Virus record (IMG/VR): IMGVR_UViG_2529292919_000008
Length of the DNA stretch: 53,981 bases
Origin: a virus
Taxonomy: Duplodnaviria; Heunggongvirae; Uroviricota; Caudoviricetes
Strand: one strand, 5' to 3'
Every line of letters begins with the position of its first letter. The first letter of the stretch is position 1. Below the pieces are notes generated by a model, which did no database searches, was not told the DNA's origin, and saw nothing but the letters and a program-made list of their open reading frames with translations. Shown here piece after piece: positions 52,073 to 52,714 of the stretch. The position numbers were made by a program, and so were the translations under genes.

Positions 52073-52584
52073 ATCACCACCAACGGATTGCCCAGACCAG
52101 AACAGCAATGGCCACAATACGAATGGCAAATGCCATTGCCCGAATAAGTTCAGCACTCATCTTTTTAAAGTTCACGATTTCAGCGCAATGACCAGTTTTG
52201 CCAGCCCATACAGCATCGGAGACACAGCAATACCAACAGCCACCCACTTAATAGCAAAAGCCAGCGCTCTGCTGATGTCATCAGTCACTGTCACCCCAGC
52301 AGCCCCGACGAAGACAACATCACCCAGGCGAGGGACAGAAAAAGAGCAACCAGCATTAGTGAAAATGAAATACCGACAATCACACACAGGACCTTTGCCG
52401 GCGTTATGAGTTTGTCTGACATAGCTACCCCTTAATTGCCACAATTAACTGGGATACTACCCATAAAAAAGGGATGCTCCAGACCAGCAAAAATTTCCAG
52501 TTTGGTAATTGACTAATCATGAGTCGCAACTCCCTAATCAGTTTGCTAAAATCAATCAAGGCAGCCTCCCATAGCTTACTGCCA

Positions 52585-52632
52585 TAAAAACAAAACCCCG
52601 CTTGCTGCCAACAAACGGGGTTTTTACTTTTA
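52585..52632 (-). terminator. Hairpin terminator-like structure downstream of endolysin
   Basis: 9-bp stem AAAACCCCG / CGGGGTTTT with a 15-nt loop, flanked by T-rich runs on both strands. Confidence 0.4.
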
Positions 52633-52714
52633 TTCACTTAGGTTTTGCCAGTTCACAGGACTTCGTGTTATCCGCCCGCGTTGGCCAACCTCATTTTTCA
52701 GCAAAATATTCTGC

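Follow-up and report, generated by a model that had tools for sequence, protein, structure and literature searches.

We analysed a 53,981-nt stretch of DNA (hereafter the window; Caudoviricetes record IMGVR_UViG_2529292919_000008), which is an Escherichia coli prophage whose minus strand encodes the lysis cassette at the right-hand end. In this cassette, 642 nt (52073-52714) lie between the stop codon of the endolysin gene R (52715-52717) and the ATG of the i-spanin gene Rz (52072-52070). Read 5' to 3' on the minus strand, they comprise an R 3' untranslated region (UTR) of ~80 nt, a terminator hairpin, a 32-nt leader and four tandem open reading frames (ORFs) for small hydrophobic peptides, A, B, C and D, which run up to Rz (Table 1). 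Their coding signatures indicate that ORFs A-D are real, conserved genes. Our preferred reading, which we hold tentatively and at somewhat less than an even chance, is that terminator and chained array form a conserved accessory lysis module of lambdoid phages, which would be expressed late and in a Q-dependent manner, and whose peptides would modulate envelope disruption.

Same-strand hydrophobic ORFs span 453 of 463 nt, a coverage equalled in none of 2000 dinucleotide-preserving shuffles; at least three such ORFs arose in only one of the 2000, and the antisense strand scored zero. With variants from related loci, the ratio of non-synonymous to synonymous change (pN/pS) in the called frame was 0.59 for A, 0.52 for B, 0.22 for C and 0.49 for D, with no internal stops, while the other two frames gave 0.8-5.6 and were full of stops. 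None of 29 instances of ORF B has an internal stop. For a 37-aa form of D, comparison of a cassette with a GH108-type endolysin with E. coli gave a pS of 0.71 and a pN of 0.07 (ratio 0.10), and for a 48-aa form of C, E. coli compared with Salmonella gave 0.51 and 0.11 (ratio 0.22). Each peptide has one hydrophobic helix, with a Kyte-Doolittle (KD) mean over a 19-residue window of 1.9-2.9.

In searches with hidden Markov models, all four ORFs match PHROG families of unknown function (6632, 4906 and 1115/3246/4493), while Pfam, NCBIfam and PADLOC gave no meaningful match for any version of the peptides. In a collection of 5.8 billion proteins, all peptide products are named 'hypothetical' or 'membrane protein'. 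There, B forms 103 clusters, in which every source name that identifies an organism is E. coli, and C/D forms 260 clusters, nearly all from Escherichia and Salmonella; the A family is also found in Salmonella, Citrobacter, Enterobacter and Klebsiella. A search for related loci with the C/D alignment returned near-identical loci only and added no diversity, and tblastn with the 37-aa form of D matched nothing in the phage collection, which is probably due to low-complexity filtering. Moreover, XECs191, a novel translated small gene detected by Ribo-seq in O157:H7 Sakai and predicted to encode an inner-membrane protein (PMC5597208), is a homologue of B with 65% identity at a locus different from that in the window. 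Its signal in uninduced LB cultures is weak, i.e. 30 reads per kilobase per million (RPKM) for RNA, a translatome RPKM of 12.6, a ribosome coverage value (RCV) of 0.43 and a coverage of 0.55 (PMC5597208); the text and supplementary tables of that paper, as searched, do not mention a location in a lysis cassette. In total, it is the shuffle test, the pN/pS values, the PHROG matches, the hydrophobic windows and the XECs191 signal on which we base the conclusion that the ORFs are genes.

An earlier note on this DNA had counted at least two possible minus-strand hydrophobic peptides of ~28-43 aa and regarded their frames as ambiguous. The peptides are present, but as four tandem ORFs of 28-44 aa rather than two, and the ambiguity is removed by selection at the level of codons, the lack of internal stops and conservation across genera, which together single out one frame per ORF. 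The hydrophobic peptide quoted in that note corresponds to residues 1-38 of ORF B, which has 43 in all.

ORF A has a basic N terminus, a transmembrane (TM) helix at residues 24-42 (KD 2.19) and a GGGAGG Shine-Dalgarno sequence 5 nt upstream of its start. In Enterobacter homologues the start codon is a GTG at the same position, behind an AGGGAG Shine-Dalgarno sequence, and of the changes in the 13-codon N-terminal extension between the window and Enterobacter, two are synonymous and one is non-synonymous. On the basis of this conservation of the start, a 31-aa version of ORF A with an ATG start was rejected in favour of the 44-aa version; a 70-aa ORF in GenBank labelled 'TPR_REGION' (52425-52637) was rejected because it passes through the terminator. 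ORF B has a basic N terminus and a TM helix at residues 11-29. Compared with its family, whose members have 48 aa, ORF C is a copy shortened at the N terminus. Other versions of this segment were rejected: a 51-aa PGAP version of C together with a 90-aa ORF behind phrog_3246, as over-extensions into ORF B; a 33-aa overlapping frame (MTSAERW...), which has a pN/pS of ~0.9 and stops in relatives; and an N-terminal 'KYKR' extension of a 60-aa form of C, which was judged non-coding with no synonymous and three non-synonymous changes between E. coli and Salmonella. C and D share the motif RAxAFAI[KR]xVA, with a conserved basic residue inside; because both match the same PHROG families, their sequences identify them as paralogues. 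Thus, the array contains three families, i.e. A, B and the paralogous pair C/D.

The ORFs are closely packed, with stop-to-start spacings of 2 nt (A-B), 2 nt (B-C), 11 nt (C-D) and 1 nt (D-Rz), and the last codons of D (...CGT TGG TGG TGA T) constitute GGTGGTGAT, a Shine-Dalgarno-like sequence for Rz. This packing, the single nucleotide between the D stop and the Rz ATG, and the double use of the end of D would also suit a translational-coupling leader, in which the ORFs only carry ribosomes from a terminator-proximal leader to the Rz start and their products are irrelevant. We consider such a leader improbable: the amino-acid sequences are under purifying selection (pN/pS as low as 0.10); the protein families are kept in different genera and contexts; an Enterobacter peptide keeps the ...RWW end and yet is separated by 22 nt from the unrelated spanin gene downstream; and a single ORF would have sufficed.

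The R-Rz interval was compared in 78 loci that share these types of R and Rz and allowed the placement of both genes, i.e. 71 IMG/VR contigs, six GenBank/RefSeq regions and the window. The slot is occupied in 74 of the 78. To describe the cassette as interrupted, as the earlier note did, is therefore slightly misleading, since an occupied slot is the norm for this E. coli R/Rz lineage. The intervals fall into size classes of 3, 6, ~303, ~340, 444, ~493, 646, ~710, ~1000, 1201, ~1420 and 1902 nt, and two further loci (L079 and L086) have a gap of 18 nt. The proposal of an inserted small membrane-peptide module holds, in that the module is polymorphic for presence and absence and encodes small membrane peptides. 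R adjoins or overlaps Rz in a few relatives and in Qin of K-12 (rrrQ and rzpQ overlap by 4 nt), and in a scan of GTDB most other Enterobacteriaceae genera have a gap of at most 11 nt, in agreement with the premise that R and Rz normally adjoin elsewhere. Rz matches in unrelated taxa in the same scan (Kitasatospora, Bacteroidetes, Enterococcus and others; L090-L113 among them), with an Rz 69% identical to the query and some on contigs of ~48.5 kb, were set aside as presumed contamination with lambda control DNA.

The 642 bp are identical in the sequence type 131 (ST131) strain EC958, and 354 E. coli records match them at ≥99% identity; the phages vB_EcoS-569R3 and PhiR5_1 also have exactly this module. 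Of 5426 complete E. coli genomes, 2068 match some of the interval and 587 carry at least 80% of it. The GC content is 46.1%, and 42.8% in 52425-52714, compared with 54.4% for the window; the gap is therefore AT-rich as had been claimed, though only moderately so.

The occupied classes contain the same peptide genes in differing order and combination, with or without other cargo. Where peptides only are present, A3 or D stands by itself, C is followed by D or by B, or all four occur in the order A, B, C, D; with cargo, the slot holds an antirepressor gene (Ant) followed by B, a second Ant type followed by A and B and in some cases also by C and D, or Ant, B and D followed by a 255-aa ORF. From these arrangements, the slot is recognizable as a recombination hotspot in which peptide genes have been shuffled, duplicated and mixed with late cargo (antirepressors and a methyltransferase-like ORF).

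Several observations concern individual occupants of the slot. Two different antirepressor-type genes (189 and 231 aa) occur in L026 (1902 nt), L006 and L068. The 255-aa ORF, directly upstream of Rz in one locus, was read by eye as a Dam-type DNA methyltransferase. The Ant and methyltransferase-like cargo is preceded by a different terminator-like hairpin (GGCACC-GTAAT-GGTGCC). In the ~710-nt class, L075 and L077 have two further unrelated tiny TM ORFs, MTPKAANIAGIILALSAMIGAIGFAVAAIAYVCR and MIKAETTSQGADDAAKIIAVCRGIRHILTPVAWIICTALVAYTTIYLNR, together with C- and D-type peptides. Finally, the N-terminal transmembrane domain (TMD) of Rz exists in two main versions among L003-L087, one of which is (INR)MLSAFTVILLVV..., where the first aligned codon is Ile and the true start may differ. 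The version largely tracks the upstream peptide, i.e. D/A3-type (...IRWW) versus B-type (...GLLG/GLVG); this association may reflect linkage or co-adaptation, and we treat it as linkage and not as evidence for interaction.

The order endolysin, terminator, mini-peptide and spanin recurs in many enterobacterial prophages, also in otherwise unrelated cassettes, and involves endolysins of three families, holins of several and spanins of two. In Salmonella, holin_2_3 and a PF00959 lysozyme are followed by a terminator, C and Rz. In another prophage type, holin_8 and holin_3_7 precede a GH108/PG_binding_3 endolysin, a terminator and the 37-aa D, with Rz 1 nt later. In the Enterobacter cloacae complex, a GH19 endolysin and a terminator are followed by a 45-aa A-type peptide ending in ...RWW, 22 nt upstream of an unrelated i-spanin/o-spanin pair. 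The peptides co-occur with PF04971, PF16080, and PF16931 plus PF05449 holins and have no constant holin partner. In a Salmonella enterica locus (L169, CP030203), a 29-aa hydrophobic ORF (MICFVAAFMLACDGRSGWGWFLLVGLIVM; 2723-2812) overlaps the lysozyme stop by ATGA and is located upstream of the terminator; possibly it encodes one more micro-peptide of the endolysin-spanin slot.

The strong hairpin with T-runs reported after the endolysin was recovered as a 15-bp stem (52592-52624) with six GC pairs and a 3-nt loop, flanked by an A-tract and by a T-tract, with the loop and stem followed by GTTTTTATGG, and is the only strong match in a terminator scan. It thus has the GC-rich stem-loop and U-tract of an intrinsic terminator and is kept at the same position in relatives; because of the A-tract upstream of the stem, it is taken to be bidirectional. 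The R 3' UTR and hairpin together fold with -47.5 kcal/mol (z = -3.9). In all occupied interval classes, ~90 nt after the R stop are conserved and a terminator-like hairpin follows every time, and a hairpin is likewise present 3' of the endolysin in the Salmonella, GH108 and Enterobacter GH19 cassettes. Across the occupied classes the hairpin exists in three non-homologous versions. That three non-homologous hairpins occupy one site suggests that termination after R is itself selected.

The R 3' UTR consists of invariant blocks, including GGATAACACGAA, on either side of a hypervariable patch of ~20 nt, which reads, for example, GAGGTTGGCCAACGCGGGC, GCGGTTTGCTCACACGGGC or AAGGCATGGCCACGCGGGC. 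The UTR motif GGATAACAC(G/A)AAATCC is also found 3' of the unrelated lysozyme gene in the Salmonella locus L169. With 23 variants of the UTR, RNAalifold supported only the terminator and found no covariation (term +0.12), and an Rfam 15 covariance-model scan of 50000-53981 gave no match at E≤1; a structured-RNA reading of the UTR was dropped for the former reason.

These data bear on the suggestion that the interval is a regulatory RNA locus. In its full form, this explanation holds that the ORFs are spurious and that the region is a 3'-UTR small RNA (sRNA), an attenuator or a recombination linker. It would fit the conservation of the ~90 nt and the terminator across all classes, and 3' UTRs with a strong terminator are the usual source of Hfq-type sRNAs. 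Nevertheless, we rate it as the least probable of the explanations considered and see the regulatory-RNA suggestion as unsupported: all four ORFs have coding signatures and PHROG matches, covariation beyond the terminator hairpin and Rfam matches are lacking, and a 3'-UTR sRNA could coexist with the peptides but would not account for 52074-52559.

The distance from the end of the stem (52592) to the start of ORF A (52559) is 32 nt, ten of which are U-tract. This short distance leaves no space for a sigma-70 promoter between the terminator and ORF A, and peptides and spanins are therefore most likely made from read-through transcripts only. In a promoter scan, the minus strand had no sigma-70-like site anywhere in the R-Rz interval, and a scan for terminators found none between the peptides and Rz; the promoter-like matches in the scan numbered two, compared with 1.6 expected by chance. 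By analogy with lambda, expression would probably depend on read-through of the hairpin by Q-modified, antiterminated late RNA polymerase, which would yield the peptides and the spanins from the same transcripts. Translation would then be handed from ORF to ORF and finally into Rz.

The same region could alternatively be a moron, i.e. cargo expressed in the lysogen from an unrecognised promoter that overlaps the terminator or lies further upstream, with peptides that would target membrane proteins of the host, for example to exclude superinfecting phages, modulate transporters or raise tolerance to stress, and would have no part in lysis. Like the lambdoid morons bor and lom and gp15 of HK97, the module is variable boundary cargo with lower GC (46% versus 54%) and membrane-associated products; it is present, absent or shuffled among close relatives (intervals of 3 to ~1900 nt), shares its slot with Ant and the DNA methyltransferase-like ORF, and has in XECs191 a B homologue with low RNA and ribosome signals in uninduced O157 Sakai. 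Moreover, a weak TTGGCA-N16-TTTTAT element, below the scan criteria, overlaps the hairpin. By contrast, lambdoid morons have their own promoter, a downstream terminator and lysogen expression, while here the terminator lies upstream of the peptide genes with none downstream before Rz, an acceptable minus-strand sigma-70 site is lacking, and no promoter fits into the 32 nt that separate the start codon from the hairpin. The ORFs are also co-oriented with Rz and coupled to it, their position between endolysin and spanin is conserved in unrelated cassettes, and PADLOC gave no defence match. Altogether, we consider a moron the strongest of the alternatives, but unlikely.

A type I toxin-antitoxin system, which the earlier note had also raised, would mean that at least one hydrophobic peptide is a membrane toxin under the control of a repressing plus-strand antisense RNA that ends at the bidirectional hairpin. 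With fewer than 50 residues, the peptides resemble Hok, TisB, Ldr, Ibs, ShoB and ZorO in size (<60 aa) and hydrophobicity, and where ORFs A and B meet, a promoter-like site on the plus strand (52416-52445; CTGACA-18-CACAAT with an extended -10 TG) points toward the hairpin and could yield an RNA of ~185 nt antisense to the 5' end of ORF A. However, this weak site matches 9 of 12 positions, which is at the chance rate given above, the putative antisense RNA does not fold in a remarkable way (z = -1.4), and at E≤1 there was no match to a toxin mRNA, antitoxin or antisense RNA family of Rfam. Unlike type I toxin genes, the ORFs have neither a dedicated promoter, for which the 32 nt leave no room, nor a long structured 5' UTR, and do not form a stand-alone locus; all four are chained into the lysis gene Rz inside the late operon. 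We consider a type I system very improbable and not supported.

Returning to the accessory lysis module, the peptides would insert in the inner membrane late, alongside the holin, the endolysin of signal-anchor-release (SAR) type and the i-spanin. There, and these are the least certain steps, they might tune envelope disruption, be it its timing, its efficiency or a spanin- or holin-proximal function, and be dispensable for lysis itself. A modulatory role appears likeliest because the position beside the spanins is kept across unrelated holins, endolysins and spanins, although the peptides are dispensable.

Five points weigh against this interpretation. First, Q-dependent read-through is modelled on lambda biology, with Q and pR' outside the window. 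Second, not all four ORFs may need to be functional here: C is truncated, and C and D in the window are without a good Shine-Dalgarno sequence. Third, position in the lysis slot alone is no proof of a role in lysis, because the slot also carries Ant and the methyltransferase-like ORF. Fourth, the peptides accompany several families of holins, endolysins and spanins, which speaks against a specific partner protein. Fifth, the XECs191 signal comes from uninduced cultures and could represent expression in the lysogen rather than spontaneous induction.

A bolder extension of the accessory lysis module is that the terminator and micro-peptide unit represents a fifth component class of Gram-negative phage lysis, in which interchangeable inner-membrane peptides of 28-48 aa, co-translated with the spanins and with a synthesis strictly dependent on antitermination, gate or potentiate the last step. 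They would, for example, keep the i-spanin inactive until the wall is degraded, aid membrane fusion or collapse the membrane potential. We regard this extension as speculative and decidedly unlikely.

Among known systems, lysA of phage P2 comes close. It is said to have been described by Ziermann et al. in 1994 as a nonessential gene for a lysis-timing membrane protein, located between the endolysin gene K and the spanin genes lysB and lysC. Reportedly, it shares with the module the position between endolysin and spanin, a membrane product, dispensability and a presumed role in modulating timing, but LysA is said to be much larger with several TMDs and to be encoded by a single gene without a terminator before it; its sequence is not similar to those of the peptides, for which a function is here proposed.

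The releasin gp25 (DUF2730) of phage Mu is a protein of 99 aa that has a TMD at the N terminus and a cytoplasmic domain of 73 aa (PMC9239132). Like the peptides, it is an accessory membrane-anchored protein of the inner membrane, and its gene is a few genes away at most from those for a SAR endolysin and spanins (PMC9239132). By contrast, the peptides have 28-44 aa with almost nothing outside the helix, and also accompany the non-SAR GH19 and GH108 endolysins; DUF2730 was not matched by any of them in Pfam, and they do not qualify as releasins. Holin/antiholin pairs (S68/S71 of P21, S105/S107 of lambda, T/RI of T4 and LydA/LydB of P1) are likewise small membrane proteins of lysis cassettes. 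However, the peptides are encoded after the endolysin and beside the spanins, occur with at least three holin families, and match no holin in Pfam, NCBIfam or PHROG. Closest by sequence are the PHROG families listed above and XECs191, of which the peptides are members or homologues; these entries are without a function.

Searches of the literature on the slot between R and Rz, on small ORFs in the vicinity of spanins and on sRNAs of prophages turned up no account of the module. What is already known are the peptide families, as PHROGs or 'hypothetical proteins', and one homologue as a Ribo-seq candidate; for the conserved architecture of endolysin, terminator, micro-peptides and spanin, neither function nor layout was found in any paper. 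Lysis by Gram-negative phages is taught as having three parts, i.e. holin, endolysin and spanin, and the Mu releasin illustrates that small membrane accessories can be decisive. The module is very common in E. coli, including in ST131 EC958 and in Shiga toxin (Stx) phages such as H-19B, and is mis-annotated, hypothetical or unannotated, which makes a case for better annotation of small phage ORFs. If the peptides tune lysis, they would matter for the release of phages and of Shiga toxin and for the formation of vesicles; if their action is in lysogens, they would be new lysogenic-conversion micro-proteins. Either way, they offer a compact and easily testable micro-protein system.

Table 1. Features of the lysis cassette and of the interval between R and Rz, in window coordinates (5' to 3' on the minus strand)
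Feature	Coordinates	Strand	Description	Basis
Holin S	53667-53882	-	P21 class II (pinholin-type), 71 aa	PF04971, E 9e-33; PGAP 'class II holin' in identical EC958 locus
YdfR/DUF1327 protein	53312-53662	-	between holin and endolysin	PF07041, E 7.5e-43
Endolysin R	52715-53248	-	phage lysozyme, 177 aa	PF00959, E 9e-24
R 3' UTR	52635-52714	-	conserved	alignment of all interval classes
Intrinsic terminator	52582-52634	both	bidirectional; stem 52592-52624, 15 bp, 3-nt loop	A-tract 5', U-tract 3'
ORF A	52425-52559	-	44 aa, TTG start, (TTG)IDFSKLIRELRLMISQLPNWKFLLVWSIPFLWVVSQLIVAIKG	phrog_6632, E 1.3e-12
ORF B	52291-52422	-	43 aa, MSDKLITPAKVLCVIVGISFSLMLVALFLSLAWVMLSSSGLLG	phrog_4906, E 4.5e-21
ORF C	52172-52288	-	38 aa, GTG start, TDDISRALAFAIKWVAVGIAVSPMLYGLAKLVIALKS	phrog_1115, E 3e-24
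ORF D	52074-52160	-	28 aa	phrog_4493, E 3.8e-6; annotated by PGAP in EC958
i-spanin Rz	51578-52072	-	164 aa	PF03245, E 4e-51
o-spanin Rz1	51667-51852	-	embedded in Rz, lipobox VVSAC	PF06085, E 1.7e-21; PGAP 'Rz1 family lipoprotein'

The ~640 bp that the earlier note had placed between endolysin and Rz agree with the 642 nt measured, and Pfam confirmed the flanking genes (PF00959, PF03245, PF06085 and PF04971). The N terminus of R has a Gly/Ala-rich SAR-like segment. The two commonest families of endolysins in Stx phages are predicted SAR endolysins (PMC8136144), and because R in the window is 88-100% identical to R of the related E. coli/Stx-type prophage loci, we infer from its sequence that it belongs among these families.

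The annotation of the cassette differs between records. In the reference records of H-19B and of Salmonella phage SPN3UB, the region is unannotated; H-19B in GenBank has an over-long Rz of 190 aa and a gap left blank. In EC958 (L004, NZ_CP138232), where 2009-2500 corresponds to 51578-52072 of the window, PGAP calls Rz1 and three small hypothetical ORFs, with neither an Rz coding sequence nor ORF A. Downstream of the spanins, a 74-aa minus-strand ORF (51357-51581), without a Pfam match and 'hypothetical' in EC958, overlaps the Rz stop by ATGA and is thus coupled to Rz.

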